Source of the DNA: Bdellovibrionota bacterium
Lineage (GTDB): Bacteria; Bdellovibrionota; UBA2428
Reading direction: 5' to 3'
Assembly (NCBI GenBank): GCA_964201665.1
Contig: CAXNEW010000001.1
Span: forward strand, 2,623 to 66,622
DNA: 64,000 nt
The notes under the pieces were generated by a model. That model worked only from the letters and a program-made list of their open reading frames with translations. It was not told the DNA's origin and did not search any database. Of this stretch, positions 1,744 to 37,242 are shown piece after piece. The stretch's first letter is position 1. Each line of letters starts with the position of its first letter. Both the position numbers and the translations under genes were made by a program.

Positions 1744-2721
1744 ATGAGCAAAAATTTACCAGGAATAATTCTCGTCCAGGCTGCTGCGATTTCATTTTTA
1801 ATTGTGGGTTGCACCGCTGAGTATGCTCTCCGGCTTCAGCCAGCTTCTTCAATTCTACCAGATGGGAGCGTACCTGCTGGTACGCCAACAGAACCTGGTG
1901 GTGGCAAAAACGCTGCCACCGACCCTTTGCCGGCGCCAACTACTCCTCAGTTACCTCCTTTACCGCCTGTGGTTTGCGACCCCTTCGCTGCAGCAAACAT
2001 TGTTGGACCCGAATACGGTATTAGCGGGCAAATTTTTGCCGAAGGTGACTCAAACATAGGTTACAACCTCTTAAGCAGTTTTGATTATTTTACACCGGCG
2101 AGACTCTTCAACGTCGAACTCGTGTTATCAGCAATCGACGTTCCAGGCCGAAGGTGGCAAAATGGATTTTCGACTCCACAGGGTAATCAACTTAAAGTTA
2201 TAGTCAACGGCGTCGAAACACCCTTTATTGAATGGTTTGCAATTCAGGGCACAAGCAAAATTGTACTTGCCGACGGAGATCTTCCTGGGAAAAAACAATT
2301 TGCGCTGATTTCTGACGATGGCTCAACACTCGAGATTCAAGATTCTGCGGGCGTTTATCAGACGATGATTTCAAATGAGGGCTTACACAGTCAAAAACTA
2401 AAAGTTTCAGAATCAGTCTTAGATTTTCAAAACGCAACATCGCAGTTTCCAATGAGAATAAATTATTTTCAAGGACCTCGGGTACACATTGCCCTTCAAC
2501 TTCTTTGGAGAAATGTAGAATCTGACTCGGCCGCACACTTGGCTGAACCCTTAAATGGCGCCGTTGGCGGCGAGTATTTTTGGGATACACGGGTAACCCC
2601 GGTCGTACAGACCCCGGCCTATCAGGATTTTCTGTCGAGAGGCTGGAGACCCCTTCGCCCACAAAACTTTATGCGCCAGTCGGGCTACAACCGCTGCACA
2701 CAAACCACAATGGGCCAATAA
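1744..2721 (+). CDS. Lipoprotein with a PA14-like domain
   Basis: Lipobox ..FLIVGC. A Pro-rich linker follows. The pattern GISGQIF..F..........W.....L..DDGSTLEI......YFQG...IALQLLW resembles the PA14 fold signature. Confidence 0.4.
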   Translation: MSKNLPGIILVQAAAISFLIVGCTAEYALRLQPASSILPDGSVPAGTPTEPGGGKNAATDPLPAPTTPQLPPLPPVVCDPFAAANIVGPEYGISGQIFAEGDSNIGYNLLSSFDYFTPARLFNVELVLSAIDVPGRRWQNGFSTPQGNQLKVIVNGVETPFIEWFAIQGTSKIVLADGDLPGKKQFALISDDGSTLEIQDSAGVYQTMISNEGLHSQKLKVSESVLDFQNATSQFPMRINYFQGPRVHIALQLLWRNVESDSAAHLAEPLNGAVGGEYFWDTRVTPVVQTPAYQDFLSRGWRPLRPQNFMRQSGYNRCTQTTMGQ

Positions 2722-2747
2722 TTTATTTGTTCTAGGGCCTTAGGAAA

Positions 2748-4625
2748 CTAAAAGCCTATACCGAAGCCCAATCCGTCTGATGCAGTTAAGCCTGCAGGAT
2801 TGGCTTGAGGACTTAAAAGAACAGCCTGCATGTAGAGCTGGATGCCAACCAGGTTAAAGTCAAACGGAGTAACAAAGGGCTCAACAATGGCCTCACCGTT
2901 AGCATCCAAAGAAAATGAAATTGCGAAGTCAGGGGTATTGAAGCCTAGGCAACCCAACATCCCAAAGGGGTCCAGAGGTGCATTTATTTGGGAAAGGCCG
3001 ATGTAAAGCACCCCACCCACTGAGCCTACGGGTGAATTGGGAGCTGCTCTTACCTTAACTCGAAGTTGTGTTCCAATTCCCGATGAGGCTGCGTTCAAAA
3101 CCTCAACGGTAGCATTGACTGTGGCACCTGTAGGACGACACGCAACGTTTTGGATTCCTGTTTGCACCGATGTTGAGACTGGGGCCTGATAGTACCAAGA
3201 ATCATTGAAATTATCGTTTTGCCAAGCCCCAGTTTGATAACGATAACCTCCAAACATGAAGATCTTATTGAGAGCCGTTACATAAACCATTGAAGCAAAG
3301 GCTCTTGGGCCTGGAGCTGACGAGTTAGGAATCGTTTTCCACCAGTCTCGAGGTTGCGGCTCGATCGCGGCATAGGCAGCGTAAAGATTCAATCCGCTAG
3401 GAAACTGAGACGTCGCAAGCGGAGGCTGGATCGTATTTTGTCCACCATAGCTAAAAGGTTTTCCCAGACCGCCGTGGAACGCCCTTGCTGCGAAACCTCG
3501 AGCGCCACCATTTGTAACTGTCGGTAGCGATGTAACCGCTTCCCATTTTACAAAATTTCCGTTTGGAGTTTCGTTACAGTTAGCGTCCACGAACTTTGCA
3601 TTCCACTCAATTGTTGAAGCTTCGGGCAGGTTCCCACCACTGTTATAAAACCCTCGAGACTGAATAAGTTTTTTTCTAATGGGATCAAAAAAAAGATCGT
3701 GCCCAAAAACTTGGATTGGTGCGACTGCCGCCGAATTGAGGCAACCCGGCGAGGAAATTAGTTTTTTCCAAATGAGCCTTTTCTCGGTCGAAACCGAGGT
3801 ATCAAGTCTGGCAATGTAAGTCGTCATTGGGGCAGCTTCGGGAGGACTGGTGTTTCCTCCGGTCAGAACGACCATGCCATCAATATCGGTTCCACTACCA
3901 AAAGGAACATAAACCATAGCGTGATCGAAACGAGGAGACGGGACCTGTCCCGGGGGAGATTGAGAATTATAACTTTCCCAATAGCCACCAGGCACAGTTC
4001 CGGTTTGGAGCTGTGAAGGCGAAGCGAACCAATATTGGTTCAGCCGATTTGTATTACTGCATGCCATGAGGCCACCATATCGGAACAAAAGATTAACTGA
4101 ATTTCCTAAGTGGTCCCTCTCCCAAAAAACCATCGGTGCGCCATCAATACCGTCTCGAAAAAAACAACAACTCCCTGGATTTTGAGTACAAAAGGGTGCT
4201 GTCGGCGGGAGGCAATTGCAATTATTCAAATTTCCGGTTGGTGAGCCACCGACGATTGGGCATCCCCCCAAACCTCCTGATAGATTGGGGCTCAAGGCCT
4301 TCATTTTTGCCCCTGTGTCCTGCCATTGCCCCCCTGTCTGGCTATGGAAAAATACAAATGAATTTAGGTTTGCAGGGGGTCCGCTGAAACATTGGTAATC
4401 AGTTCCTTCGGTTAGCACCGAAACCCCGTAGGTAGTGCCTGAAGCCGCTGGCGGCACATAAACCATTGAAGCCCGACGCCTTATGGGCGGCACCACTCCA
4501 GCAGTGGGTGTGATTGCACTCCACTGGCTATAGGCTGCCGGCTCGACTGCAACGACAGTCAATAGAAGCAATTGACGACTCAGGACATTGAATTTTTGAT
4601 ATTTTTTTTGGGAAAGTACTGCCAC
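2748..4625 (-). CDS. Secreted Kelch/beta-propeller-like repeat protein
   Basis: GTG start with an N-terminal signal-like segment. Blades of the type ..R..ASMVYV.....I.MFGG recur (RFDHAMVYVPFG, AFASMVYVTALNKIFMFGGY). Confidence 0.4.
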   Translation of the reverse strand: MAVLSQKKYQKFNVLSRQLLLLTVVAVEPAAYSQWSAITPTAGVVPPIRRRASMVYVPPAASGTTYGVSVLTEGTDYQCFSGPPANLNSFVFFHSQTGGQWQDTGAKMKALSPNLSGGLGGCPIVGGSPTGNLNNCNCLPPTAPFCTQNPGSCCFFRDGIDGAPMVFWERDHLGNSVNLLFRYGGLMACSNTNRLNQYWFASPSQLQTGTVPGGYWESYNSQSPPGQVPSPRFDHAMVYVPFGSGTDIDGMVVLTGGNTSPPEAAPMTTYIARLDTSVSTEKRLIWKKLISSPGCLNSAAVAPIQVFGHDLFFDPIRKKLIQSRGFYNSGGNLPEASTIEWNAKFVDANCNETPNGNFVKWEAVTSLPTVTNGGARGFAARAFHGGLGKPFSYGGQNTIQPPLATSQFPSGLNLYAAYAAIEPQPRDWWKTIPNSSAPGPRAFASMVYVTALNKIFMFGGYRYQTGAWQNDNFNDSWYYQAPVSTSVQTGIQNVACRPTGATVNATVEVLNAASSGIGTQLRVKVRAAPNSPVGSVGGVLYIGLSQINAPLDPFGMLGCLGFNTPDFAISFSLDANGEAIVEPFVTPFDFNLVGIQLYMQAVLLSPQANPAGLTASDGLGFGIGF

Positions 4626-4832
4626 GTTTGAGAATCCCTTTCGATTTCGAGCTTAGGTTTGAACAAAGGAGGGGCCTTACTACAAAAGAGGATCGGTTTC
4701 TACAAGAAGTCTTTTCCGTTTGGGGGAAAAAACAGGGTCAGTTTTTGCCTCCATTGCAATTTAAATTTTTCAATTGAAAGGCTTTCACTCAGGGGCTTAT
4801 TCCTAGGGACGTAAAAACAGGCGACTTCTTTA

Positions 4833-4909
4833 GCACCCATAGCTCAATTGGATAGAGCATCAGACTACGAATCTGAAGGTTGTTGGTTCGATCCCAGCTG
4901 GGTGCGCCA
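4833..4909 (+). tRNA. tRNA-Arg (anticodon ACG), CCA encoded
   Basis: Hand-folded cloverleaf of 77 nt. Acceptor GCACCCA/TGGGTGC. D arm GCTC-AATTGGATA-GAGC. Anticodon arm TCAGA-CTACGAA-TCTGA. Variable loop AGGTT. T arm GTTGG-TTCGATC-CCAGC. Discriminator G followed by CCA. Confidence 0.93.
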
Positions 4910-5246
4910 CTGAGTTGCTAACGAAGTATTTTTTCTTTCTACAAATTCCATACGTGTCATAACCGCCGCCAGTCAAAGAGTGACATTTAGTCACTCCTTG
5001 CCACGGGGCGGCCCAGCTGGGTGCGCCACTTGATTGCAAATGAAGTATTTTTTCTTTCTACAAATTCCTTGCGTGTCATAACCGCCGCCAGTCAGCGCGA
5101 GCGCGCTAAATTGCGGAGCGATTTAGCGCGATGCGCGCGTGAGTTCAACAAAGCCCCCCGAAGGGAGGGCGACTTGAACGGAACGCGAGCCGGAGGCTAC
5201 CTCTTTAGTCACTCTTCGCCACGGGGCGGCCCAGCTGGGTGCGCCA
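4893..5246 (+). repeat. Three perfect direct copies of the tRNA-Arg 3' end (17 nt cccagctgggtgcgcca), each with a conserved flank (att-like tandem units of 119 and 218 bp)
   Basis: Copies lie at 4893-4909 (inside the tRNA), 5012-5028 and 5230-5246. Each is followed by ..tg.ttgc.aa.gaagtattttttctttctacaaattcc.t.cgtgtcataaccgccgccagtca. Copies 2 and 3 are preceded by ttagtcactc.t.gccacggggcgg. Confidence 0.85.
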
Positions 5247-5353
5247 TTTATCGCAAATGAAGATCATTTATCTTTCTACAATCTCCAAACGTGTCATGTC
5301 CGCCGCCAGTAGATAGTGCTATTTGCCGGGGTTTGGCAGCGAAACAAATGTTG

Positions 5354-5388
5354 TTGAATTTTGGGCATATAATGTGTATAATATGCCC
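5354..5388 (+). promoter_or_regulatory. Putative sigma70-type promoter with an overlapping operator palindrome upstream of, or abutting, the DUF4160 gene
   Basis: TTGAAT (5354-5359), a 17-nt spacer, then TATAAT (5377-5382). The inverted repeat gggcatat (5363-5370) / atatgccc (5381-5388) brackets the -10 element. The ATGs at 5383 and 5389 would make the mRNA leaderless or nearly so. Confidence 0.4.
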
Positions 5389-5631
5389 ATGTCGCCAGTG
5401 GTTTTCTATTTTGAGTCGCTGAAGTTCAAAATCAATGCAAACGACCATAATCCGCCACACGTTCACATCGAAGGGCGTGGAGCTAAAATTCGGATCAACT
5501 TACTTACCTTACAGTTCATGGACGCAAAAACGGGTTTTTCGAACAGAACATTAGAACTCATTTTGGAAGAAGTGACTCGAAGGCAAAACGAGTTAACAGA
5601 AGAATGGAGAAAGTATCATGAAAAAGATTAA
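5383..5631 (+). CDS. DUF4160-family small protein (candidate toxin-like partner of a two-gene module)
   Basis: The motif ..NDHNPPHVHIEG.. matches the DUF4160 H-PPH-H signature. The start was moved from 5323 to ATG 5383 (5389 is an alternative) because of the promoter just upstream. It overlaps the next gene by 14 nt. Confidence 0.55.
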   Translation: MPMSPVVFYFESLKFKINANDHNPPHVHIEGRGAKIRINLLTLQFMDAKTGFSNRTLELILEEVTRRQNELTEEWRKYHEKD

Positions 5632-5866
5632 AACAGGAAATGTTGAAATTGGGCCTGACGAGTTCAACCCTAAACACGGCAAGTTTCGAGTTAATATGTT
5701 CGTTGACTTAGATGTTGTAGATGAAATTCGAAGAGTCGCGGCTCAGCGAAATATTGCCTACCAAACGCTCATCAATCAAAAGCTGCGAGAAATTTTTCTA
5801 TATGAAGAAACTCTTGAAGACCGTGTGGCTCGTTTGGAAAAACTCTTGAAGAAGAAACGAGCCTGA
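5618..5866 (+). CDS. BrnA/CopG-like antitoxin-type DNA-binding protein
   Basis: An 82-aa protein. The segment ..DVVDEIRRVAAQRNIAYQTLINQKLRE.. resembles the BrnA antitoxin C-terminal ribbon-helix-helix region. It is translationally coupled to the upstream gene. Confidence 0.5.
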   Translation: MKKIKTGNVEIGPDEFNPKHGKFRVNMFVDLDVVDEIRRVAAQRNIAYQTLINQKLREIFLYEETLEDRVARLEKLLKKKRA

Positions 5867-6120
5867 AAGCTCAAATTCTTATTATCCACAGTCTCAGCAT
5901 CGATCCAAAGAAAATGAGCCCTACGACTTAAGTTCACTGCATTTTCTACGCTGTTCGCCATAAGGAAAGTGCCATAGGACATCTGGTTCTTGGCTATCGC
6001 GCTCTTAACAGGATTGTCGTAAATGTTTTTAGGCCATTCAAAAGGCGCTTCCTGTATGCCCTCAGTGGCAAAAGCCACCGTTGCTCCCAAAAGAGCGGTT
6101 ATGAGAACGAGGTTTTTCAT
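5776..6120 (-). CDS. Small secreted hypothetical protein
   Basis: ATG at 6120 is preceded by GGAGG about 11 nt upstream. Signal peptide MKNLVLITALLGATVAFA. The 3' end overlaps the convergent BrnA-like gene by about 90 nt, so the real stop and even the reality of the gene are uncertain. Confidence 0.35.
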   Translation of the reverse strand: MKNLVLITALLGATVAFATEGIQEAPFEWPKNIYDNPVKSAIAKNQMSYGTFLMANSVENAVNLSRRAHFLWIDAETVDNKNLSFQARFFFKSFSKRATRSSRVSSYRKISRSF

Positions 6121-6178
6121 AAGCATCACGGCCTCCAAAGTTACGCCCGCAGTCCAGGTACACAAAGACCACTTCTAT

Positions 6179-6289
6179 AAAGATGCAGGAATATCGAGAC
6201 GAGCCTTGTTTAAACTGATGGAGCCAAACGCTAATCCAACACTGGAGAGTTTAGCAAAGGTTTGCAGGGCACTAGCGAAAGCGGCATAA
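6179..6289 (+). pseudogene. Remnant of an XRE-family helix-turn-helix gene (C-terminal half only)
   Basis: The translation ..KDAGISRRALFKLMEPNANPTLESLAKVCRALAKAA* looks like helices 2-5 of an XRE HTH. No matching N-terminus is present, and the upstream part of the ORF is antisense to another gene. Confidence 0.3.
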
Positions 6290-6408
6290 AAAGACCGCGA
6301 TTGCCCGGCGCCTATTTTTTGTTTGGTTGATCGGCAAAAACCAAAGACAGGCCCCGGTAGAAAAAATCGAAGGCACTTGTCAAATCGCCGAAGCAAAGAA
6401 ATGAAAAG

Positions 6409-7353
6409 CTAGGGATTTAGGCCCAGTATCGCGGCAAATATACGATTGGCCTTCTGAATCTCCGTTAGCAAACCATTCTTGTCATCGGTCGGCCGAAAGG
6501 ACGCATCCCAGTAAGCGGCAGCAGCAAGGGCTCGTTCAAAGTAGGCCGCTTTGTCTCGCTGAACCTCATCCCAATGGGCGCCCACCTCACCCCGAAGCCA
6601 ACCAAAGTAGCCGTGAACTTCCTTGAACTCCTTTGTCGAGGGCGGCCTTTTGTTGGCCGCACGACAAAGCCCCCTCAGCCTCTTCTCGAAACGCGCGGGA
6701 TCCCATCGCGTCGCAAAACTCCGCAAGCCGTTCCAAGCAGTGAAGAAGGCGGTCGAGTAGGGTCCTTTTCCCTGACGATCATGACTAACCTCCCGCGTTG
6801 CAATTGCAAGTAATTCGAGATCTTCAAGCCAGAGGACTCCAAAAAGATCCGCCAAAAATTCTTCAATTCCCTCTGAAACCCTCTTCTTTTCCTTGCCGGA
6901 AAAAGTAGGGCTTCGATGCAGTCGGATAGCGATCAAATGATGGGCCCACTCATGGAGGGCTATCGCTTGGAAAACCTCCAAATTCGGGGAGTCGTAAGTC
7001 TCTATTACTCTTGACCCCCATTCACTTCTGGCAAGTCCGCCCTTCTCTTCAGTGAGGATGACCTTGAGTGAAAGCGGAATCGAAAGAAATGGGTAGCGAG
7101 AACGTGTGCCCTGAATCATCTCTTTGATCCACGCTTCCTTTTTAACCTCTCTCGATGTTCCGGCTTTCCAGACAAAAGTGACTTCTACCTTGTCTACGGT
7201 GTTAATGGGCACCAGCAAGATGTTCTGGAAAACAGGTCCCAAAAGATTGCCGCAAGAAGCGGTATAGGAATCTGCTTCCGCAGCCAAAACACCTGGGCTG
7301 AATAAGCTCATCAGCAGAGCCGCCACGCAGGGCACGACCGCAGATGCGGTCAT
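6409..7353 (-). CDS. Secreted putative zinc metalloprotease-like protein (HExxH)
   Basis: The internal ATG at 7353 gives the signal peptide MTASAVVPCVAALLMSLFSPGVLAAEA. The motif ALHEWAHHL (HExxH) is present. I recognise no further family. Confidence 0.45.
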   Translation of the reverse strand: MTASAVVPCVAALLMSLFSPGVLAAEADSYTASCGNLLGPVFQNILLVPINTVDKVEVTFVWKAGTSREVKKEAWIKEMIQGTRSRYPFLSIPLSLKVILTEEKGGLARSEWGSRVIETYDSPNLEVFQAIALHEWAHHLIAIRLHRSPTFSGKEKKRVSEGIEEFLADLFGVLWLEDLELLAIATREVSHDRQGKGPYSTAFFTAWNGLRSFATRWDPARFEKRLRGLCRAANKRPPSTKEFKEVHGYFGWLRGEVGAHWDEVQRDKAAYFERALAAAAYWDASFRPTDDKNGLLTEIQKANRIFAAILGLNP

Positions 7354-7445
7354 GGAAAACGCGCGCGGTATCACAAAGAGATAAAACCTAGATTTAAACA
7401 CGATCGGTTGGGTAACACACTTAGGTACTTGGATCAATTCGAAAC

Positions 7446-7560
7446 GATCCCGGCTGCCGTTGTACTAAACTGACCTCTATTCAAACAGTTTCCTACCAAC
7501 CTTTGTCATGAAACTTTCTCAAATTCTAAACATTCAGCTCGAAAGTCCCTCAGAAGGATA
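7446..7560 (+). repeat. Degenerate tRNA-3'-end-like sequence plus ~75-nt E-element, copy 1
   Basis: gatcccggctg (7446-7456) matches tRNA gatcccagctg (4890-4900) at 10 of 11 positions. The E core at 7484-7560 (aacagtttcctaccaacctttgtcatgaaactttctcaaattctaaacattcagctcgaaagtccctcagaaggata) aligns without gaps to copy 2 at about 60 of 77 positions. Confidence 0.7.
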
Positions 7561-7572
7561 AATTGCCGTTTG

Positions 7573-8262
7573 TTACTTTTCTAAAAAAGCATTCTCTAAG
7601 ATCTTAAAGATCTTCTCTCTGCCCGCCCTTTGTAAAAATGGAAAATGTCCTGCACCCGCAATTTCAAAATTAGTCACCCTTTTATTTAGGGTTTGAAAAG
7701 TTCTACAAATTCGAGCTGGAAAACGGACATCTTTCTCACCAAATATATTTAGTATTGGAATCCCGATGTTTCTAAAAGAATCCGTAAGATCGTAACTGTC
7801 TAAATAAGTCTGCATGCACTCAAAGGTTTCACTAGAAAATGATTCCCAGGTTTGGTCTAGAAAAGAAGTTCCATCATTGGCTTCATGGGGTGTTAGAAAA
7901 ATTTCGTGGGGTTTTGCACTGAGAAGTCCAAGCTTAGTTCGCTCCAATTGGAATTCGTCGTTCCAATGTTTGTGACTAAGCCCGGTGCTCATCAACACAA
8001 GGCCCGCCAATTGCTCTTCATGTTGAGTCACGTAGGCAGTGGCCAAAACAGCACCCCATGAATGGCCAACAAGAATTTTTTTTCCGGGAATGGAGCAAAC
8101 CCTTGTGTTCAACTGAGCTAACATTTCATCAATAGTGACCGTCGGGCCACGAATCTGGTCATAAAATTCACAGTTAAATTTGACGGCAAGACTTTTAAAA
8201 AAAGGTTTTAGATAATCTCTAAATCCTGGACCACCGTGCAGAAAAATTAAAGTCGGTTTCAC
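7573..8262 (-). CDS. Alpha/beta hydrolase (proline-iminopeptidase-like)
   Basis: N-terminal LIFLHGGPG, which looks like an oxyanion-hole motif, and the nucleophile elbow GHSWG. Confidence 0.7.
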   Translation of the reverse strand: MKPTLIFLHGGPGFRDYLKPFFKSLAVKFNCEFYDQIRGPTVTIDEMLAQLNTRVCSIPGKKILVGHSWGAVLATAYVTQHEEQLAGLVLMSTGLSHKHWNDEFQLERTKLGLLSAKPHEIFLTPHEANDGTSFLDQTWESFSSETFECMQTYLDSYDLTDSFRNIGIPILNIFGEKDVRFPARICRTFQTLNKRVTNFEIAGAGHFPFLQRAGREKIFKILENAFLEK

Positions 8263-8385
8263 TTTAGCTCATACTAGCATCGCAAAGAATCCACTCAATT
8301 CAGGGTTTTTCCTTTGACTATAGTGTTAGTGTTTTAAATTCAATTCGTAGGTCTGAAATCGGGGGGTATGCGATCGACTTAAACG

Positions 8386-8925
8386 CTACTTTAATTGAAA
8401 AAAATATTTTCGAATCGATTTTGGCCAGTCTGGAACATCATAGGTATCAATGAGTTTGCCCCCATTCTTTTCAAGAACCCCGATGGAACCAAGATTATCG
8501 GTATCACATGTCACGACAACTTCTGTCGTTCCTCGCCTCTTGATTTCTCTGAGCCCAAGTCTAAATGCCTCGCTCGCAATTCCCTGCTTCCGATAATCAG
8601 GTCGAATCTCAAATCCAAAGTGACCACCTAGTTGTTCTAATTCGGGAGTTAATTTAGGGCGAAGGGTGAGTTTTCCAACTGCGGTTTCTCCATCGCACAC
8701 GATCCAGTAGGTGATCTGAGCGACACGACCTTCAATAACATCTGTCCATTCTCGTTCTCGACGAGCCCAATCGAGATAGAGTTGAAAGTTTTTAAGCCAT
8801 TCCCAATTGATTGGGCGCAAAGGATCTTCTTTTTGAAAATCCTTTAGACATTCAATGTAACTCTCCCTCAACTCCCATGAAGGGAACTCCAATGTCACCT
8901 TATGTCGGCATGTGGTTTTGGCCAT
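8386..8925 (-). CDS. GNAT-family N-acetyltransferase
   Basis: ..FGFEIRPDYRKQGIASEAFRLGL.. matches the acetyl-CoA-binding R/Q-x-x-G-x-A/G motif, and the protein has typical GNAT length. Confidence 0.7.
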   Translation of the reverse strand: MAKTTCRHKVTLEFPSWELRESYIECLKDFQKEDPLRPINWEWLKNFQLYLDWARREREWTDVIEGRVAQITYWIVCDGETAVGKLTLRPKLTPELEQLGGHFGFEIRPDYRKQGIASEAFRLGLREIKRRGTTEVVVTCDTDNLGSIGVLEKNGGKLIDTYDVPDWPKSIRKYFFQLK

Positions 8926-8944
8926 AACAGTATTTTACGACAGT

Positions 8945-8980
8945 TCAAATCTTGGGCAATCAACCTAATTGTTTCATACC
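8945..8980 (+). repeat. Truncated E-element, left part only
   Basis: caaatcttgggcaatcaacctaattgtttcatacc parallels caagacttgataaataattgtttcatacc at 11675-11703. The 14 nt aattgtttcatacc are identical. Confidence 0.5.
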
Positions 8981-8994
8981 GAAGTTCGGCTCTT

Positions 8995-9297
8995 CTAGCC
9001 GACTTTGAGTTTTAAGGATGGGTTGATCTTTTCGTAGAGCGAGATCAGCCTGTCCGTGGAGAACTCCTCCGTACGGTTTCTGAGAATTTTGCTGACCTTG
9101 CCTTCGTCGATTCCAAGAATCTTAGCGAGTTCGCGCTGGTTGATCTTTTCAGTCAGCACATAGCTCACAAATTTCTGCTGGATATCGTGACGAAACTTCT
9201 CAAGAGGAGTTGGGTTTGCGGGAAGTGCACGTGTACCCTCGACCTTCTCGAGTTTTTTCAAAACTTGTTTAATCTCACGACTCTTAGGAAATCCCAT
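8995..9297 (-). CDS. XRE-family HTH protein (antitoxin-like, with no adjacent toxin)
   Basis: C-terminal HTH ..INQRELAKILGIDEGKVSKILRNRTEEFSTDRLISLYEKI.. About 220 bp of non-coding DNA lies upstream where a partner gene would be expected. Confidence 0.6.
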   Translation of the reverse strand: MGFPKSREIKQVLKKLEKVEGTRALPANPTPLEKFRHDIQQKFVSYVLTEKINQRELAKILGIDEGKVSKILRNRTEEFSTDRLISLYEKINPSLKLKVG

Positions 9298-9520
9298 TAT
9301 TTCTTCCTCCGGTAAGCGTTAATCAGGCCCGGGATACTCGCGGCGATTCAATCGCAAACCGGAATAGCAAAACTTACCAAATATGGCAAGCTTTATCTTG
9401 ACTCCCCCATTTGCCCGTTAAGCCTGCTGTCGCGCAAGTGCGGGGACTCTTAGCCATATCGTTTGTGGGTAATGCCTGAATTTGTAAACGGCTGTAATTC
9501 AGAAACCAAGGAGTATTAAA

Positions 9521-9931
9521 TCATTTCTTTAAAAAAGGTTTCCTCCAATAATATGGCGACGCTTGTGAAAGTTTGATCCAGTTACATTTCGTGGAATCAG
9601 TTTCATCAGGGACACCTACGGTTACATCTCCGCCCCACGAATAAAGTCGTTCCTGACATACTCCACAAGGAGACAAGATATGATACTTTAAATCTTCACC
9701 TCGACTCACGCATACACTTGCTATGACTGATTGATCTCGCTTGTAAGCCTCACAAATTGCTCCGGTTTCATGACATAAAGAAACTGATTCACTTTCTACG
9801 CGTGGAGAAGTTGAAATTAGAAATTCCCCATTTTTCAATAGAAGAGCGGCCGCCCCTTGCCATGGAGTCGGTGGAAATCTTTTTTCAATAAATTCAATTG
9901 CCTCATGAACGAGGATATCTAGGCTCGTCAT
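9521..9931 (-). CDS. Cytidine-deaminase-fold protein resembling blasticidin-S deaminase
   Basis: Zinc motifs ..SLCHETGAI.. (C/H-A-E type) and ..ILSPCGVCQERL.. (PCGxC). The size (136 aa) and the C-terminal ..SPYYW.. parallel BSD. Confidence 0.6.
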   Translation of the reverse strand: MTSLDILVHEAIEFIEKRFPPTPWQGAAALLLKNGEFLISTSPRVESESVSLCHETGAICEAYKRDQSVIASVCVSRGEDLKYHILSPCGVCQERLYSWGGDVTVGVPDETDSTKCNWIKLSQASPYYWRKPFLKK

Positions 9932-9974
9932 GATCTAGAACATAATAGAGGTCGTTAAAGGTGGCGATCAGCCC

Positions 9975-10052
9975 AACAGTTTCACATAAATCTTTTTCAT
10001 AAAAACTTACTTAAATTCTAAACACACGGTTCGAAAGTCCCACCGAGGGATA
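9975..10052 (+). repeat. E-element, copy 2
   Basis: aacagtttcacataaatctttttcataaaaacttacttaaattctaaacacacggttcgaaagtcccaccgagggata. It is preceded by aaaggtggcga, a weak echo of the tRNA-end repeat. Confidence 0.7.
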
Positions 10053-10055
10053 CAT

Positions 10056-10424
10056 CTACGCTGCCAGATCCAATTCAAAACCTGAGAACCTCGAAAGAGG
10101 CACAAGTCCTTTTCGTCCGGTACCAGCATTTTTCAACTCAATAAGACCTATATCCACAAGAAGCTTCACATCAGTGTGCACATTTTTGAAATCCTTACCC
10201 AATATTTTAGCAAGCTCATAAATCGATTGGGGCTTCTCATGAATTACAGCACGAAGAATTTCCATTCGATTTTTCGAGAAAATTCGAGCAACAGCCTCCA
10301 GATTCGCAAAGATGATCTCATCATCTTTCTGGATTGATTTCCTTTTGCCTACCAAAGCTTCTTTCCATTCGCGTTTTACATTTTCCAATGACTTTACGAC
10401 AATTTTTGCGTGGTTTTTTTTCAT
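10056..10424 (-). CDS. Winged-helix DNA-binding protein, TumA-like antitoxin candidate
   Basis: ..MEILRAVIHEKPQSIYELAKILGKDFKNVHTDVKLLVDIGLIEL.. is a wHTH. There is a 4-nt overlap with the upstream small gene. Confidence 0.5.
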   Translation of the reverse strand: MKKNHAKIVVKSLENVKREWKEALVGKRKSIQKDDEIIFANLEAVARIFSKNRMEILRAVIHEKPQSIYELAKILGKDFKNVHTDVKLLVDIGLIELKNAGTGRKGLVPLSRFSGFELDLAA

Positions 10425-10759
10425 ACTAAAAATCCTTCTTTTTTTGCCAAAAACCAGAATTCATCGATCAACTCAGAATCCCCCAGATATTCATAAGGTT
10501 CTTCTTGAGAATTTCGGTGCAGATGTGGCCCTTTGGGTTTGTGATTATCGAATCCAAAAATCACAACTCCATTTTCCTTCCAAACAAGATAAAGAGAATA
10601 CTTTTTACCTTCAGGATAATGAACCGAGGCCGGAACGCTCCAAATCTTTAGCTCTGCTATTGCGATCTCTTCGCTATTTCTATGCAACAACTGGATTTTG
10701 GAGTGATAAAGCAGCGAAGCTTTAGTTCGCATTGCAGCCATATATGGTAAATATAACAT
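10421..10759 (-). CDS. DUF6516/TumE-like toxin candidate
   Basis: ..KYSLYLVWKENGVVIFGFDNHKPKGPHLH.. matches my recollection of the DUF6516 core (..gyDN....G.H.H). It is paired with a wHTH gene. The start could be one of the internal Met codons. Confidence 0.45.
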   Translation of the reverse strand: MLYLPYMAAMRTKASLLYHSKIQLLHRNSEEIAIAELKIWSVPASVHYPEGKKYSLYLVWKENGVVIFGFDNHKPKGPHLHRNSQEEPYEYLGDSELIDEFWFLAKKEGFLV

Positions 10760-10774
10760 ATATAAAGGAAAGAT

Positions 10775-10942
10775 CTAGCAGCTTGCTGAAAAACTCCTGT
10801 ATGCCAGTTCCCGAGCGAAATTTTCGAGATTGCGACGGACCGACGACGGGCTATACGGAGTTATAACCCTAGGAGGTCCAACAAAAATCTCGGAAATTGC
10901 AGCCGGGAAATGGCGTGCAGGAGTTTTTCAGCAAGCTGCTAG
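10775..10942. mobile_element. MITE-like 168-bp palindromic element with perfect 25-bp terminal inverted repeats
   Basis: ctagcagcttgctgaaaaactcctg (10775-10799) is the exact reverse complement of 10918-10942. The interior is itself an imperfect palindrome (gccagttcccgagcgaaattttcgagatt vs the reverse complement gccatttcccggctgcaatttccgagattt). The outermost CTAG could instead be a palindromic target duplication. Confidence 0.6.
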
Positions 10943-11033
10943 TGTAGTGATTGAAATTCTCTTCTAAGGTCTTTAACCAAGGGTTTTTAGCCCTTGTTAG
11001 GAAGTCCAAAGACGGGATATTTTAATACATAAC

Positions 11034-11684
11034 ATGAAAACTATTGAGTTCTACTTCGATGTAGTCAGCCCCTATTCCTGGCTCGCCTTTCATAGAATCC
11101 ACACAGCGTTACCGTCTGCCAATTGGAACTATCGCTCGATACCCGTACTCTTCGCTCGTTTACTTGATCATCACAAAAAATTGGGACCAGCCGAAATTCC
11201 AGAAAAGAGACGTTATGTTTTTAAAGACGTGATTAGAATTGCTCACAGACTCCAGAAAAAATTTGTAGGACCGCCTTCTCATCCCTTTAATCCACTCCTT
11301 CCCCTCCGAGTGATCTGTGCAACCCCTGAGCGGGATCGCAATGAGGTGGGATTTTCTTTAATTGATGGTGCTTGGGGCAAAGGAATCGACATTTCCACAG
11401 AGCAAGGCGTAAGGGCCGCGTTGGAACACCTCGGTCTCGATCTGGATGCTATTCTTTCCAATTCTCTATCCGAGCAGACAAAGCAAATACTTAAACAAAA
11501 CACTGAGACAGCCATCAACAAAGGAGTTGATGGCGTTCCAACTTTTTTTGTCGAACACGAAATGTTTTTTGGCCAAGACCGATTTGAAGATGTTTTATAT
11601 TGTGCCGAAGGAAGGCTAAAAGTTGACGAATCTTTTGTAAATGAAGTTCTCAGTCGCCCCTCGTCCGCCATCCGCAAGACTTGA
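11034..11684 (+). CDS. DsbA-family 2-hydroxychromene-2-carboxylate isomerase-like protein
   Basis: N-terminus MKTIEFYFDVVSPYSWLAF and C-terminal ..GVDGVPTFFV...FFGQDR.. are typical of the HCCA isomerase/DsbA_FrnE group. Confidence 0.7.
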   Translation: MKTIEFYFDVVSPYSWLAFHRIHTALPSANWNYRSIPVLFARLLDHHKKLGPAEIPEKRRYVFKDVIRIAHRLQKKFVGPPSHPFNPLLPLRVICATPERDRNEVGFSLIDGAWGKGIDISTEQGVRAALEHLGLDLDAILSNSLSEQTKQILKQNTETAINKGVDGVPTFFVEHEMFFGQDRFEDVLYCAEGRLKVDESFVNEVLSRPSSAIRKT

Positions 11685-11689
11685 TAAAT

Positions 11690-11817
11690 AATTGTTTCAT
11701 ACCAGTCTTTGTCATGAAACTTTTTTAAACTTTTGACATACGGCTCGAATATCAGCTTAGCAAAAACAGCGGGGCCCCAAGGTGGCTGCCCCACTCAAAG
11801 CAAATGAAGATCAGTTA
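11690..11817 (+). repeat. E-element copy 3 (11690-11755) followed by a degenerate tRNA-3'-end copy with flank (11770-11817)
   Basis: aattgtttcataccagtctttgtcatgaaacttttttaaacttttgacatacggctcgaat. Next, cggggc-cccaaggtggctgccccact compares with cggggcggcccagctgggtgcgccact at about 15 of 20 positions in the core. Finally, gcaaatgaagatca is identical (14 of 14) to the flank of the third perfect copy near 5252. Confidence 0.65.
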
Positions 11818-12348
11818 TTAGCTTTTGTTGCGCACTTTAAAAATAACGACCGCTTTAGATGGCGAACCGCCTGATTTGATTAGCGCAAAATCTGGTCGGG
11901 CTAAGGTGCCTGATTCTTTTTTAGCAAAAACGGCGTCCAACTCGGCTTCAGAGCTATGAAGGTAGCGTCCAACCCAATTGGAATTTTCGGCCATGTTGTA
12001 CTCGTGAATATATTTCATTTGCCCAACGCTTGCTTTCAAGTCTTGTTTAATTGTATCCAACCGTCTGTCGGCCAAAGTTCGGTCTGCCTTGGGCAAATCT
12101 CCAGTTACCATGTGATCTTTGTCAGACCAGGCAGCAACTTCAATTTTTGTAATTTTTCCTTTGGCTTTTGCGTCGGCTATCGCTTTGTTCAAGGTCGTTA
12201 AATTCGTCGAATTTAGATTAGAAGCCCCCTGGTCAAAACTCAAAATAACACTTTCAAATTCTTCCACTGGGGGGAGATTCTCTTTGCCCTGCCCAAATGT
12301 GTTTAAACTTATCAACGTTACAACGAGACCAAATTTTTTCATTTTCAT
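11818..12348 (-). CDS. Secreted hypothetical protein
   Basis: An internal ATG gives the signal peptide MKMKKFGLVVTLISLNTFGQ. There is weak OmpA_C-like wording (..ADRTLADRRLDTIKQDL..). Confidence 0.4.
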   Translation of the reverse strand: MKMKKFGLVVTLISLNTFGQGKENLPPVEEFESVILSFDQGASNLNSTNLTTLNKAIADAKAKGKITKIEVAAWSDKDHMVTGDLPKADRTLADRRLDTIKQDLKASVGQMKYIHEYNMAENSNWVGRYLHSSEAELDAVFAKKESGTLARPDFALIKSGGSPSKAVVIFKVRNKS

Positions 12349-30340: not shown

Positions 30341-31840
30341 TTAACGGGCGAAAATCTCAACAGTCTCCACCCACCTGGGCAAACGACTTAAACCCCCAAG
30401 AGCATAAATTGCTGCCAGCACACACAGAGTTGTCGCCAAGGCCGTTGGCCAAAGCTTAGCCACGCGTTTGTTTTGAGGAATTTCGTCAGTGGGTTCATCC
30501 TGATTCATGTACAAAGGAACTAAAATTTTCAGATAGAAACCAAGACCAAGAAGTGTTCCTAAAATCAGTAAACCTGCTGAAAAGTATTCTTGCCCAATCC
30601 ACAGGTCTTTGAGAATTAAATATTTTCCAAAAAAACCGGGCAAAGGCGGGATACCTGCAATGGAGAAAACAAAAAATGCAAAAATTCCCACAAAAATACC
30701 CTGAAATTTTCGTCCAATTTGTGGAAGGTTCTCGATTTTCAAATCCCCATGGGGCTCAAGGCCCAATTGAGTTGAAAACCTTTCTAAAAGTGCAAAAATT
30801 CCAACTACGCTAACAGAGTAAATAAAAAGGTAAGCAAACATGGACCCTGTCGCAAAAGGTCCGGCCGCCAAAGCTAATGCTGCGAAACCCGCGTTCACAA
30901 TTCCAGAATAAGCAAAAAGGCGGCGCAAGCTTTTTTGGGCCATTGCAAGAAGGCTTCCCGCAACAATCGACAAACCCGCAAGTCCAATCAAAATCTGCTT
31001 AAGCTCAGGAAAATTTGAAAAACCGGTGAGCGTCCAAATGCCTGCCAGGGCTCCAAAAACAGAAATTTTTGTAGCCGTAGAAAGCATCGCTGCCATTGCA
31101 GTGGGCGATGCTTGGTAAACATCGGGTGCCCACATGTGCAAAGGAAACAAAGCGAGCTTAAAGGACAAACTCGAAATTATTAAAATTGCGGCCGAAAGGG
31201 CCATAAATTTTTCAGGGCCGCTGTTTACTGACTTTAAAGCAGAGGCAATGAGCTCAAAATCCAGAGTTCCCGTGAGACCGTAAAAGAGGGCTGCTCCCAT
31301 TAAAAAAAATCCCGAACCAAAGGCTCCGGTCAAAAGATATTTTAATCCGGCTTCAAGAGATTTTTCTCTGTCCGTGTCTAGGGATGCCATCACATAGCCA
31401 GTTATGGCGAGAGTTTCGAGATAAACAAAAAATGAAACCCAATCTCGGGCGCCAGGTAAAAGCGTAAGGCCCAAAACTTGAACAACCAAAATAGCTAGCC
31501 ATTCGGGATGCAACACGCCATTTCGCGTTGGGGTGACAAATGTTGATACCAATAACGCAAGAATCCCTACTGCGCAGCCCACGAGCCTAGTGAAGGCATT
31601 CATCTCTAGCGCTGTGCCCATAACAGCCACTGGAGGATTTCCAAGTTGAATCGCCAACAAACCCACAAAGGGAACAAAAACAAAAAAACTAAGTACCCGT
31701 GTAAACCCAATCCCTAAACGAAAGCCCGCAGCTAAAGTCGAAAAAACCAAACCTACACAAAGCCAAAGAAGCGGAAAAAGAGCCTGAAGCTCATTTGGGC
31801 CCAGGGTAAAAACAGAGGAATCAAAAAAACTACTTTCCAT
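30341..31840 (-). CDS. nuoN: NADH-quinone oxidoreductase subunit N (cluster 1)
   Basis: ..LFPLHMWAPDVYQASPTAMAAMLSTATK.. and its position after nuoM. Confidence 0.8.
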   Translation of the reverse strand: MESSFFDSSVFTLGPNELQALFPLLWLCVGLVFSTLAAGFRLGIGFTRVLSFFVFVPFVGLLAIQLGNPPVAVMGTALEMNAFTRLVGCAVGILALLVSTFVTPTRNGVLHPEWLAILVVQVLGLTLLPGARDWVSFFVYLETLAITGYVMASLDTDREKSLEAGLKYLLTGAFGSGFFLMGAALFYGLTGTLDFELIASALKSVNSGPEKFMALSAAILIISSLSFKLALFPLHMWAPDVYQASPTAMAAMLSTATKISVFGALAGIWTLTGFSNFPELKQILIGLAGLSIVAGSLLAMAQKSLRRLFAYSGIVNAGFAALALAAGPFATGSMFAYLFIYSVSVVGIFALLERFSTQLGLEPHGDLKIENLPQIGRKFQGIFVGIFAFFVFSIAGIPPLPGFFGKYLILKDLWIGQEYFSAGLLILGTLLGLGFYLKILVPLYMNQDEPTDEIPQNKRVAKLWPTALATTLCVLAAIYALGGLSRLPRWVETVEIFAR

Positions 31841-31843
31841 TTT

Positions 31844-33343
31844 TCACCTAAAATAAGTTAGAACCTGCGTAGCCGCAGGTTCTACTTTCGAAAGAATTGC
31901 CTGAGAACCAAAACCTAAATAGATCATAAATAAAAGTAGAGGAACTAAACTTGCCCATTCGTTCCAAGTCACTCTAACTGGATGAGATTTCACAAGTTCA
32001 GAAACAGGTCCATAGGCAAACCGTCTGAGCATTCCCAGCATATAAATAGCTCCAAGCAAAACTCCCGACAGCGCAACCAGCGAATAAACAGGAAATGTTT
32101 TGAAACTACCTGCGAGAATTAAAAACTCTCCTACAAAACCCGGCAACCCTGGAAGACCAATCGAGGCCATTGAAGCTAAAATAAAACTTGTGGCAAGCCA
32201 TGCATGCTCTTGGGCAAAGCCTCCATATTTTGAAATTTCTCTTGAGTGAGTACGCTCATAAATAATTCCGAAAATCAAAAACAGAGCGCCTGTACTTAAA
32301 CCGTGGGCAATATTTTGAAAAAAGGCCCCCTGTAAGGCTTCGACGCCAAGAGCAAAGAGTCCCAAAACCATAAAGCCCAAGTGCGAAACCGAAGAATAAG
32401 CGATCATTTTTTTAATGTCAGTTTGGAACCAGGCCGCGAAAGCGCCCATCACGATTCCCACACAACCTAATGCCATGAGTGTCGGAGCCGCTGCTGCGCT
32501 TGCCTCTGGAAATAGCGGTAGGCACCAACGAGCAATTCCGTAAACTCCTAACTTCAACAAAACTCCAGCCAAAATCACTGAGGCCCCGGTTGGCGCTTCA
32601 GTGTGGGCATCAGGCAACCAAGTATGAAAAGGCCAAACGGGAATTTTAACAACAAATGCGAGCATAAAACCTAAAAACAAAAGGCCTTGAACCGAGCCCC
32701 ATCCTTGAAATTCAAAATTTGTTGCAACAAGATCGTGCCACCCTAAACTTGCAACATCAAACTGGAATGCCAAAGCTAAAATAGCTGCAAGCATGAAAAG
32801 TGATCCCGCCATAGTAAATGCAAAAAATTTTAAGGAAGCATAAACTCGATTTTTAGACCCCCACCCCCCAATTAAGAGATACATCGGGATGAGCATAAAC
32901 TCCCAAAAACAATAAAAAACAAAGGCGTCTGCGGCGAGTAAGGACCCAACCGAGGCTCCATTTAAAATCGAAAAAAGTCCTAAATATCCTGGACCCAAAT
33001 TCTTTTTGTTTAGTGAAAAAAACCCCAAACAAAGACTCAAAAGAACATTGAGACCCAGAAGGGGAATATTGAGCCCATCTAAACCAAGCGAAAACCGACT
33101 CTTAAGAAATGGAATCCAGTCCCAAGAAAAATATACCGGAAATGCCCGTGGCCCGCCGCCATCCCCTGCAACACTGAGCTCCTCCCAAATGGGGCCAATT
33201 GCCCAAACGAAAAGGAGTACCCAAACAATCTGAAACACCAGACTTGAGTACTGCGCAAGCAATGGGATTTTTTTGGGAAACAAAAACAACAAAAGCCCCG
33301 TTACAAAGGGCCACAACAAAAACAAAAGCAATGAATTTTCCAT
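31844..33343 (-). CDS. nuoM: NADH-quinone oxidoreductase subunit M (cluster 1)
   Basis: ..VWPFHTWLPDAHTEAPTGASVILAGVLLKLGVYG.. Confidence 0.85.
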   Translation of the reverse strand: MENSLLLFLLWPFVTGLLLFLFPKKIPLLAQYSSLVFQIVWVLLFVWAIGPIWEELSVAGDGGGPRAFPVYFSWDWIPFLKSRFSLGLDGLNIPLLGLNVLLSLCLGFFSLNKKNLGPGYLGLFSILNGASVGSLLAADAFVFYCFWEFMLIPMYLLIGGWGSKNRVYASLKFFAFTMAGSLFMLAAILALAFQFDVASLGWHDLVATNFEFQGWGSVQGLLFLGFMLAFVVKIPVWPFHTWLPDAHTEAPTGASVILAGVLLKLGVYGIARWCLPLFPEASAAAAPTLMALGCVGIVMGAFAAWFQTDIKKMIAYSSVSHLGFMVLGLFALGVEALQGAFFQNIAHGLSTGALFLIFGIIYERTHSREISKYGGFAQEHAWLATSFILASMASIGLPGLPGFVGEFLILAGSFKTFPVYSLVALSGVLLGAIYMLGMLRRFAYGPVSELVKSHPVRVTWNEWASLVPLLLFMIYLGFGSQAILSKVEPAATQVLTYFR

Positions 33344-33344
33344 T

Positions 33345-35276: not shown

Positions 35277-35286
35277 TTTTAATTCC

Positions 35287-35607
35287 CTAACCCTTCAAAG
35301 ATCTCAAATCGTCGAGCGAGACTGTTCCCACTTTTCTAAAGATTGCAACAAATAGACCCAACGCCACGGCAGCCTCGGCCGCTGCAACTAAGACAATAAA
35401 AAGAACTAAGGACGCTCCCTCAGGATTTCGGTGCAGATTTGAAAAACTCACTAAGCACAAATTCACCCCGTTGAGCATGAGCTCCAAACACATGAGGGCA
35501 ATCAAGCCCGACCTTCGAATCAAAAAGCCCGATACCCCAATACAAAAAAGTAGGACCCCGATTCCAACATGAAACTGCGTTACAGATAATCCAGAAAACA
35601 ATTCCAT
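35287..35607 (-). CDS. nuoK: NADH-quinone oxidoreductase subunit K (cluster 1)
   Basis: ..LELMLNGVNLCLVSF.. and ..AAAEAAVALGL.. ATG 35607 is preferred over TTG 35625. Confidence 0.8.
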   Translation of the reverse strand: MELFSGLSVTQFHVGIGVLLFCIGVSGFLIRRSGLIALMCLELMLNGVNLCLVSFSNLHRNPEGASLVLFIVLVAAAEAAVALGLFVAIFRKVGTVSLDDLRSLKG

Positions 35608-35611
35608 TTTT

Positions 35612-36157
35612 TTACTTACCTTCAACCTGATCCAATTGTTTTTTGGGCTTCCCTAAAACCACAACTCCCATAACGGTTGCAAAAATCAGAAGGCCCGCCA
35701 CCTGAAAGGGTAAATGATACTTCGAAAGAAACTGCAAAGAGATCACCGACGGAGAGGCAATAGAAGCAAGCGACTCAACCTCCGCCGCGCCCTGATTTCC
35801 AAAAGAACTTCTAAACGCGGCCACGCTTAAGCCCAAACCTAAAAATAAGCTTACAAAAACTCCTCCCGCAATTGAAACTGCCCGCCCGGGAAGAGTCAAA
35901 GAAAGCGGCTTAAGATCTAGCAACATGACAATAAAAACAAACAAAACCGCTATGGCGCCGGCATAAATAAGAATTTGAATGGCTCCCATAAAAAAATGAC
36001 CAAGCCCTATATAAAGAGCCCCCGTCAGAAAAAGAGTTGCCATCAAATTCACCGCACTCACAACCGGATTTTTCGAAAGCACTACAGAAAGAGCCGTAAC
36101 CAAGGTCAAAAAACCTAAAACAATTTGCACCACGTTTGGGCTGCCAACGGATTCCAT
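35612..36157 (-). CDS. nuoJ: NADH-quinone oxidoreductase subunit J (cluster 1)
   Basis: Its position between nuoH and nuoK. ..QILIYAGAIAVLFVFIVML.. is typical of NuoJ/ND6. Confidence 0.75.
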   Translation of the reverse strand: MESVGSPNVVQIVLGFLTLVTALSVVLSKNPVVSAVNLMATLFLTGALYIGLGHFFMGAIQILIYAGAIAVLFVFIVMLLDLKPLSLTLPGRAVSIAGGVFVSLFLGLGLSVAAFRSSFGNQGAAEVESLASIASPSVISLQFLSKYHLPFQVAGLLIFATVMGVVVLGKPKKQLDQVEGK

Positions 36158-37240: not shown

Positions 37241-37242
37241 TT

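Follow-up and report, generated by a model that had tools for sequence, protein, structure and literature searches.

In the tycheposon islands of Prochlorococcus, integration takes place repeatedly at the island tRNA, so that new elements push older ones deeper into the island and partial tRNAs mark the older events (10.1101/2020.12.28.424599). In Dehalococcoides, tandem islands are found downstream of ssrA, with repeats of about 20 bp from its 3' end and additional conserved sequence surrounding them; 15 of these islands lack an integration module and were read as cis-mobilizable elements (CIMEs) joined by accretion (PMC3146451). The locus described here lies on a 64,000-nucleotide (nt) stretch, hereafter the window, of contig CAXNEW010000001.1 from a Bdellovibrionota bacterium (UBA2428; GCA_964201665.1). 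It extends from position 4893 to position 11818 of the window, starts inside the 3' end of a tRNA-Arg(ACG) gene, and is probably a genomic island built at this gene by the serial site-specific integration of small units without an integrase of their own. Insertion in series at the tRNA had already been proposed in an earlier note made from the sequence, and it is the best of the readings compared below.

Junctions derived from the tRNA-Arg 3' end

The tRNA-Arg(ACG) gene (4833-4909, plus strand; ARAGORN; Rfam tRNA, 67.9 bits) was the sole tRNA gene of the window. Its final 17 nt, CCCAGCTGGGTGCGCCA (4893-4909, plus strand), which cover the T-stem 3' strand and everything up to and including the CCA, constitute a core that is repeated downstream. 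Behind the tRNA, this core is followed by a 66-nt right arm (P'-like), the two forming the T1 module (4893-4975, plus strand; family D1; nhmmer E = 5e-27). Two further D1 modules were detected by nhmmer on the same strand, T2 (5012-5094; 92% identity to T1) and T3 (5230-5312; 72% identity to T1), each with its own right arm, and the E-values of the three ranged from 1e-24 to 5e-27. Their cores lie outside any tRNA gene and are nonetheless identical to the tRNA at 17 of 17 positions, while the arms have diverged from that of T1 by 8% (T2) and 35% (T3). Under neutral drift, 17 positions would remain unchanged at 35% divergence with a probability of 0.65^17 = 7e-4. Given perfect cores beside diverged arms, a single copying event followed by drift does not account for the T cores; they were either set by the recombination reaction, which needs identity between its partners, or kept by selection as sites.

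A 26-nt left arm (P-like), TTTAGTCACTCYTYGCCACGGGGCGG, precedes both T2 and T3 (4986-5011 and 5204-5229; family D4; 93% conserved between the two), and the alignment showed it to be missing from the corresponding stretch upstream of the core inside the tRNA itself. All right arms end at CCGCCGCCAGT and all left arms start at TTTAGTCACTC, with sharp limits between arms and interiors. Since the order is left arm, core and right arm, the T2 and T3 junctions look like attP sites between tandem integrated elements. The interiors between successive T junctions measure 11 nt in a first unit (unit A), about 100 nt in a second (unit B), and kilobases after T3. Williams is said to have described in 2002, for integrases that target tRNA genes, that perfect cores with conserved arms on both sides are the signature of recombination between attP and a tRNA 3' end; in the present locus such arms surround the core at T2 and T3 (26 nt on the left, 66 nt on the right), and a different repeat, E, follows the decayed cores described in the next section.

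Unit A (4893-5011, plus strand) is cargo-less, measures 119 bp and consists of the T1 module, 11 nt and the left arm. It is closed by an imperfect 49-nt hairpin (4963-5011, plus strand), identified by folding, which includes the left arm at 4986-5011 and in which the end of the right arm pairs with the left arm (-15.0 and -16.6 kcal/mol; z = -4.5 and -5.1). The equivalent stretch after T3 did not fold significantly, and the hairpin is strong in unit A alone. Unit B (218 bp) is also cargo-less, and the part of it that follows T2 (5095-5229, plus strand) holds a G+C-rich structured insert of about 100 nt and then the left arm. Within this insert, a G+C-rich hairpin with a T-run (5153-5170, minus strand) resembles an intrinsic terminator facing the tRNA; judged from its sequence, it could block antisense transcription arriving from the island.

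The tRNA 3' region might alternatively have been multiplied by local tandem duplication or by replication slippage, with chance similarity added and no site-specific recombination involved, which would also leave the first three copies in close tandem, as they are (119 and 218 bp apart). Such an origin is very improbable in view of the perfect cores next to arms diverged by up to 35%, the left arm missing upstream of the core in the tRNA, a related copy 6.5 kb away with unrelated genes in between, and a gene content that varies between strains.

That distant copy, T4 (11777-11818, plus strand; family D2), combines a decayed core (13/17) with a flank and is 79% identical to T3 over 42 nt. It shares the 14-mer GCAAATGAAGATCA with T3, and a remnant of the left arm, CGGGGC, stands directly before it. 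Compared with dinucleotide shuffles, its similarity reached z = 7.7 to T2 and z = 13.1 to T3, and a search for the 17-mer core with up to 4 mismatches returned, besides T4, a single other site in 128 kb (both strands). T4 is probably the oldest junction, that is the displaced original 3' end of the tRNA and the distal boundary of the island, and the original downstream flank may follow it. The island therefore has an intact tRNA at one edge and 3'-end repeats in the same orientation inside and at its far end. The three perfect tRNA-end copies with their flank and the end-like core with flank reported at 11770-11817 in the earlier note were both recovered by these analyses, as was the single orientation of all modules, every T and E copy lying on the plus strand.

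A probable second, older family of junctions

E is a repeat of 78 nt present in three copies, all in one orientation. E1 (7484-7562, plus strand; nhmmer E = 3e-22) ends 10 nt from the stop codon of a hydrolase gene, E2 (9975-10054, plus strand; nhmmer) abuts the stop codon of a TumA-like gene, and E3 (11690-11768, plus strand; nhmmer) lies directly against the T4 junction. Pairwise identities were 77, 71 and 65%. E1 and E2 agree at 60 of 78 positions with one 1-nt gap, so that the repeat noticed earlier is real, although the two copies do not align without gaps as had been stated. The remaining 52 kb of the window contained no fourth copy, the three-copy profile giving nothing else below E = 0.8. 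The truncated copy formerly placed at 8945-8980 shrinks to 15 nt identical to the beginning of E3 (8966-8980, plus strand; pairwise z = 6.4), with a profile E-value of 0.73 in a 3-kb search.

Decayed tRNA 3' ends were found before E1 and E3. The first (7446-7465, plus strand) begins with GATCCCGGCTG at 7446-7456, which matches positions 4890-4900 of the tRNA at 10 of 11 positions; when this alignment is extended to the 3' end of the tRNA, the end lands 19 nt before E1. The second (11651-11670, plus strand) finishes with GTCCGCCA at 11663-11670, which agrees with the final 8 nt of the tRNA at 7 of 8 positions and leaves 20 nt to E3. With a first-order Markov model as the null, the probability per copy of a match equal to that of E1 at any place 0-60 nt upstream is P = 0.0033, and that of a match equal to that of E3 within one register of the E1 spacing is P = 0.011; jointly, P is about 2e-4 with the choice among copies allowed for. 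Both of these resemblances had been pointed out in the earlier note and hold up under this treatment. Because the remnants stand in one register before E1 and E3, E can be seen as a second arm family. Together with E3, the stretch 11651-11776 looks like one more unit without cargo, about 126 bp long.

The earlier note had also seen in the left part of E a likeness to the flank of the perfect copies. Pairwise local alignments between E and T flanks gave z of at most 2.6, the E copies escaped the T profile even when the search space was reduced to 1.6 kb, and the summed local score of the nine T-E pairs (z = 1.2) was equalled in 38 of 300 shuffles and in 45 of 300 draws of random segments from the window. 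A relationship between the E and T flanks was accordingly rejected, as it stayed at chance level whether examined by local alignment (strict or mild), by nhmmer or against controls with random segments. Statistical alignment of the distal copies related T4 (z = 13) to the proximal modules and left the E flank without detectable homology to them, which corresponds to two flank families and not to one decaying module. We conclude from these sequence comparisons that E appears to form the right flank of tRNA-end junctions belonging to a second and older family, and not to be a worn T flank.

Another possibility is that only the T repeats are attachment sites. The segment from T3 to T4 (5230-11793) would then be one 6.5-kb element, and E an unrelated intergenic repeat carried within it, for instance one that belongs to the 3' ends of the cargo genes or regulates them. 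The absence of significant similarity between E and the T flank is in line with this view, as are the lack of a core remnant at E2, the position of all three E copies 3-50 nt past a minus-strand stop codon, a modest hairpin kept on that strand with one compensatory change, and a difference between strains (see below) that ignores the E boundaries. We nevertheless regard it as unlikely, since it leaves the tRNA-end remnants 19-20 nt before E1 and E3 to chance (joint P about 2e-4) and E3 directly adjoins the T4 junction. Moreover, E did not fold better than shuffles on either strand (z from -1.5 to +0.6), the three-copy consensus retaining just a weak A+T-rich hairpin, and no sigma-70-like site or intrinsic terminator was common to the copies. 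A role of E as promoter or terminator was rejected on this basis. Rfam gave no match for E or T besides the tRNA. The idea that E or the T arm is what remains of a gene's 3' end was likewise set aside: the open frames on the minus strand are very short and have no clear coding signature.

An integron-type reading, in which E would be an attC site, was rejected as well, as E lacks both a significant fold and attC boxes. Inspection by eye found a GTTRRRY-like heptamer in E2 alone, with no RYYYAAC partner and no R''/R' boxes, and no IntI or other tyrosine recombinase is encoded in the scanned open reading frames (ORFs) of the window. The hairpin of unit A folds well but flanks a tRNA-derived core. 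The sites are derived from the tRNA end and are not attC-like, as had been suggested at the outset, and since the defining attC structure was tested and is absent, the locus is neither an integron nor a cluster of attC sites lacking integrase (CALIN).

Probable accretion at the tRNA and its alternatives

In the reading of the locus as an accretion island, an incoming circular unit would bring an attP-like site in which a left and a right arm enclose a copy of the tRNA 3' end. Its integration at the tRNA would restore the gene and shift earlier units outward, so that each junction would consequently show a left arm, a tRNA-end copy and a right arm in one orientation. The young, T-type units with perfect cores would be unit A (119 bp), unit B (218 bp) and the unit starting at 5230; older, E-type junctions with decayed cores would lie at about 7446, at about 9955 (where the core would have decayed beyond recognition) and at 11651; and T4 (11777-11818) would be the oldest, probably the displaced original tRNA end. 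The integrase would be supplied from elsewhere, now or formerly, which would make the units akin to CIMEs, and later erosion would have added deletions, the loss of a toxin gene, a HigA fragment, a MITE-like (miniature inverted-repeat transposable element) insertion and an indel of about 2 kb between strains. As no unit carries a recombinase, the units depend or depended on an integrase encoded elsewhere; we infer that a tyrosine- or serine-type enzyme acted in trans, and likewise the order of events. Moving outward from the tRNA, perfect T-type junctions come first, then decayed E-type junctions, and then T4, the most decayed. The age gradient proposed earlier holds insofar as copies are intact near the tRNA and decayed distally, but E is not demonstrably a worn T flank.

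Several results weigh against accretion. No Pfam recombinase domain was found in the 10 ORFs of the island or in 40 other scanned ORFs of the window of at least 150 residues, which agrees with the absence of an integrase noted earlier; none was present in the 8.6 kb of contig past the left end of the window, taken from an independent assembly of the same sample; and no integrase is among the genes called on the corresponding array of a related strain. Upstream of E2, nothing comparable to the tRNA-end remnants of E1 and E3 was detected, and the fragment at 8966-8980 is marginal and doubtful as a truncated E. A common origin of the T and E arm families is assumed, while their flanks show no detectable homology. 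The cargo-less units of 119-218 bp are not explained by the simple decay of larger elements. Finally, neither end of the inferred strain indel (about 8995-10942) falls at an E module, and the sequence evidence on the modules derives entirely from a single environmental sample of which more than one assembly exists.

The modules were also sought in other genomes and metagenomes. The T and E patterns had no match in IMG/VR viral contigs, the E pattern had 2 chance matches only in 185,579 species-representative genomes (GTDB), and a relaxed E pattern had 1 chance match only in JGI metagenomes. As the strict and relaxed patterns gave just chance matches elsewhere, E is not a widespread repeat in these collections; within the 64 kb, both E and T are confined to the island, and E is not palindromic, as repetitive extragenic palindromic sequences, bacterial interspersed mosaic elements (REP/BIME) or MITEs usually are. 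The T region had no BLAST match among phage or plasmid records. The bare 17-mer core returned 7 matches in IMG/VR, none of them in a tRNA, including one, common to three contigs, inside an ORF of 579 residues. Neither E nor T modules were found near homologues of the deaminase described below or near a further homologue of its neighbouring helix-turn-helix (HTH) antitoxin. Units A and B are flanked by att-like sites and have no recombinase genes, and no helper element for them was found in IMG/VR (T and E), GTDB and JGI (E), or by BLAST against phage and plasmid records (T).

These searches also bear on the idea of an integron-like gene-capture platform, in which an unlinked integrase would insert and excise minimal attP-type cassettes at the fixed 3' end of the tRNA. 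The circular cassettes, of about 110-130 bp in two arm families and with or without 1-3 genes, would in that case be working parts and not debris. Sharp boundaries between arms and cargo that are common to the units, two and possibly three arms-only units (119, 218 and about 126 bp), and cores that are perfect despite diverged arms count in favour of such a platform. Random decay of larger islands, moreover, does not predict units of 119-218 bp that consist of an attachment site with sharply delimited arms. The cargo is also integron-like (toxin-antitoxin pairs, GNAT, small enzymes), the array of the related strain comprises, in our grouping, at least 16 small units with no integrase called, and the 49-nt imperfect hairpin adjoins the core in unit A. 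That hairpin, however, is strong in unit A alone, the units are not uniformly made of one gene and one site, no recombinase was identified in the scanned ORFs of the window or the adjoining 8.6 kb, and the modules are absent, chance matches aside, from the other genomes searched (E in GTDB and JGI; T and E in IMG/VR). A dedicated platform of this kind is accordingly judged to be quite unlikely, and accretion of integrase-less units remains the preferred explanation.

Comparison with related genomes

Gene tables, and not DNA, were the basis for comparing the island with that of a related strain (GCA_041447055.1; JGI 3300059473), in which several of the cargo proteins occur at 90% identity or more. 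A 3.8-kb contig of this strain carries, in order, a 196-residue protein, a DsbA-like protein, a GNAT, a hydrolase and a 135-residue protein, which corresponds to the distal part of the island. A block of about 2 kb (about 8995-10942), containing an antitoxin gene, the deaminase gene, E2, the TumA/TumE pair and the MITE-like element, is missing from it. This difference has no module at either end, which indicates that ordinary indels also shape the array. The idea that an E copy had been split by insertion of the block was discarded, as none of 625 flank-joining variants scored above 7 bits.

On a 32-kb contig of the same strain, an OmpA gene and a gene for a 319-residue protein are placed as are the OmpA and 325-residue protein genes of the window, although the 319-residue protein is not among the homologues of the 325-residue one. 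They are followed by about 20 small genes, which we grouped into the at least 16 units mentioned above, nearly all of them different from those of the island; the DUF4160/BrnA-like pair recurs 8 kb into this array with at least 90% identity. Island units consequently differ in presence and content between the related genomes, as judged from gene order, and conservation of the whole 5-12 kb block in synteny, which would have pointed away from insertion in series, was not observed. The distal units are common to the two strains and the proximal ones strain-specific, as accretion at the tRNA predicts. One site per unit, as supposed in the earlier note, is a loose description, since the units hold 0 to 4 genes and the strain indel is not bounded by modules.

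Two other loci are informative about the tRNA surroundings. In L016, whose neighbouring protein is 55% identical, a tRNA-Arg identical at 77 of 77 positions lies, within the region 10516-10596 that was compared with window 2722-4909, 1-2 nt past the stop codon of this neighbouring gene, which encodes a 322-residue protein. There, the tRNA has the opposite orientation, a 625-residue protein gene that adjoins it in the window is absent, and the contig ends at the tRNA 5' end. The surroundings of the tRNA have therefore been rearranged on the 5' side too. A simple inversion was considered for the orientation in L016 and rejected, as it predicted a core remnant after the gene of the 325-residue protein (window 1744-2721), the homologue of the 322-residue gene of L016, and none is there. 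In another organism (L009), an intact toxin-antitoxin pair (9658-10303), related to the antitoxin unit of the island, is 730 nt away from a tRNA-Leu(GAG) gene (11033-11117), which counts in favour of accretion. An ORF of L009 without a Pfam match runs into the 3' end of this tRNA-Leu(GAG); Pfam gave no support for taking it as a remnant of a serine recombinase. The organism studied here is rare, its proteins being confined to one environmental sample represented by several assemblies.

Gene content of the island and surrounding chromosome

Pfam annotation agreed with the cargo listed in the earlier note, except that the label of one gene as metalloprotease-like relies on a HEWAH motif alone. 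After T3, the first unit begins with a toxin-antitoxin-like pair (5323-5866, plus strand; promoter-like site at 5354-5382), made of a DUF4160 gene and a weakly matching CopG/BrnA-like partner. A HigA-like antidote gene fragment follows (6023-6289, plus strand; Pfam dnstrm_HI1420, E = 1.7e-4, below the curated cut-off), in which the match is confined to the C-terminal 33 residues; its sequence may represent the remnant of a second, decayed toxin-antitoxin module. The gene with the HEWAH motif is a 342-codon ORF (6409-7437, minus strand; likely start ATG at 7353) for a secreted protein of no Pfam family, with a signal-peptide-like start and a G+C content at third codon positions (GC3) of 0.55, compared with 0.41 in the window core.

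Beyond E1, genes encoding an alpha/beta hydrolase (7573-8262) and a GNAT acetyltransferase (8386-8925) are both on the minus strand. They are followed by an HTH_37 antitoxin gene with an operon remnant (8996-9398, minus strand), which is 87% identical in DNA to L009 9658-10302, the interior of the toxin gene excepted. As L009 holds the intact pair at this identity, the toxin gene partner has been deleted here. The next gene (9521-9931, minus strand) encodes a small protein of the cytidine-deaminase fold (weak Pfam match), with 455 homologues, several of which are named cytidine deaminase by their sources. Beyond E2 lie a TumE toxin gene (10421-10759) and its HVO_A0114/TumA-like partner (10056-10424), both on the minus strand, and then a MITE-like insertion of 168 bp (10775-10942, no strand assigned) with 57-nt terminal inverted repeats that are 86% complementary. 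The window contains this element once. A contig break within it in the independent assembly of this sample suggests that additional copies exist, either in the rest of the genome or in the community.

The last gene (11034-11684, plus strand; Pfam) encodes a DsbA-like protein of the 2-hydroxychromene-2-carboxylate isomerase family. Its final 11 or so codons (11651-11684; tail SRPSSAIRKT) coincide with the decayed tRNA-end copy and its spacer, and the same tail is found in the DsbA-like protein of the related strain (P0004). Judging from this sequence, the ORF seems to have been extended into a former attachment site. Overall, GC3 of the island genes ranged from 0.29 to 0.56, compared with 0.41 +/- 0.05 in the window core as represented by 24 housekeeping genes. 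The G+C profile, which had been put forward as a check, fits mixed gene origins, though the island genes are short.

The rest of the window is ordinary chromosome, with two NADH-dehydrogenase gene sets and genes for seryl-tRNA synthetase, Mfd, UvrA and an ATP synthase subunit. The two NADH:quinone oxidoreductase (nuo-like) sets are adjacent (30341-39693 and 40102-47428), and each includes separate genes for chain 1, chain 6 and antiporter-like subunits. Next to the tRNA, on its 5' side, the gene of the 625-residue protein (2748-4625, minus strand) encodes a beta-propeller-like protein with 1 homologue (42% identity) in 5.8 billion proteins. This gene is missing from the corresponding position in both relatives and may belong to a variable region on the 5' side of the tRNA.

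Comparison with known mobile systems

The locus gives a small-scale view of how a tRNA seeds a strain-variable island, with intact, ageing and fossil junctions ordered along 7 kb, in a host lineage that is almost without genomic sampling. Should units made of an attachment site only prove to be mobile, they would correspond, among integrative elements, to MITEs or to empty integron cassettes, and their movement would indicate that an integrase acts in trans on many passengers.

Integron arrays and CALINs, the latter reportedly defined by Cury and colleagues in 2016 as clusters of attC sites lacking an integrase, resemble the island in their short units of one orientation, typical cassette cargo, lack of an adjacent integrase and placement of the newest unit at the insertion point. 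They differ in having attC sites, whereas the core here is a tRNA 3' end and the arms of 26-80 nt suggest double-stranded, attP-type sites. The pdif modules and Xer-dependent integrative elements (IMEX) that Blackwell and Hall (2017) and Das and colleagues (2013) are said to have described likewise consist of one- or two-gene modules between recombination sites, without a recombinase of their own and served by an enzyme from elsewhere. When compared by architecture, they use 28-bp XerC/XerD dif-like sites in alternating orientation, unlike the tRNA-derived direct repeats of the present locus.

Tandem accretion, CIMEs and elements related to ICESt1 have reportedly been described in Streptococcus thermophilus by Pavlovic and colleagues (2004; cited in PMC3146451) and by Bellanger and colleagues (2011). 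In this ICESt1-type accretion, as here, tandem units grow from one attachment site and the att copies share one orientation, and some of the units are CIMEs, which have kept their att sites but lack genes for an integrase or for transfer and therefore need a helper. The present locus departs from it in its target, the 3' end of tRNA-Arg, in having no unit with an integrase and no known helper, and in its far smaller units (119 bp to about 2.5 kb), at least two of which are cargo-less.

The earlier note could not match the locus to a described class of elements, but the two kinds of island introduced at the outset do match it. The ssrA islands of Dehalococcoides are alike in their tandem arrangement, the tRNA-like gene upstream, the 3'-end repeats with conserved surrounds and the strain-variable region; many of them, however, keep a serine-recombinase module, with a gene overlapping attL, and they measure from kilobases to tens of kilobases (PMC3146451). 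By comparison, the Bdellovibrionota island shows no recombinase, two arm families and sub-kilobase units. Tycheposons share the model of integration at a tRNA, scattered partial tRNAs and small, strain-variable cargo (10.1101/2020.12.28.424599), and differ in having their own integrase and replication modules, of which none is present here, in belonging to another host lineage, the names of homologues pointing to Oligoflexia/Bdellovibrionota for the present locus, and in the unrelated sequences of their arms. What sets this locus apart is that no unit has an integrase, that the units are tiny, two or three of them being cargo-less, and that two arm families occur at one tRNA. It differs from known accretion islands in degree, and represents a published mechanism and not a new one.

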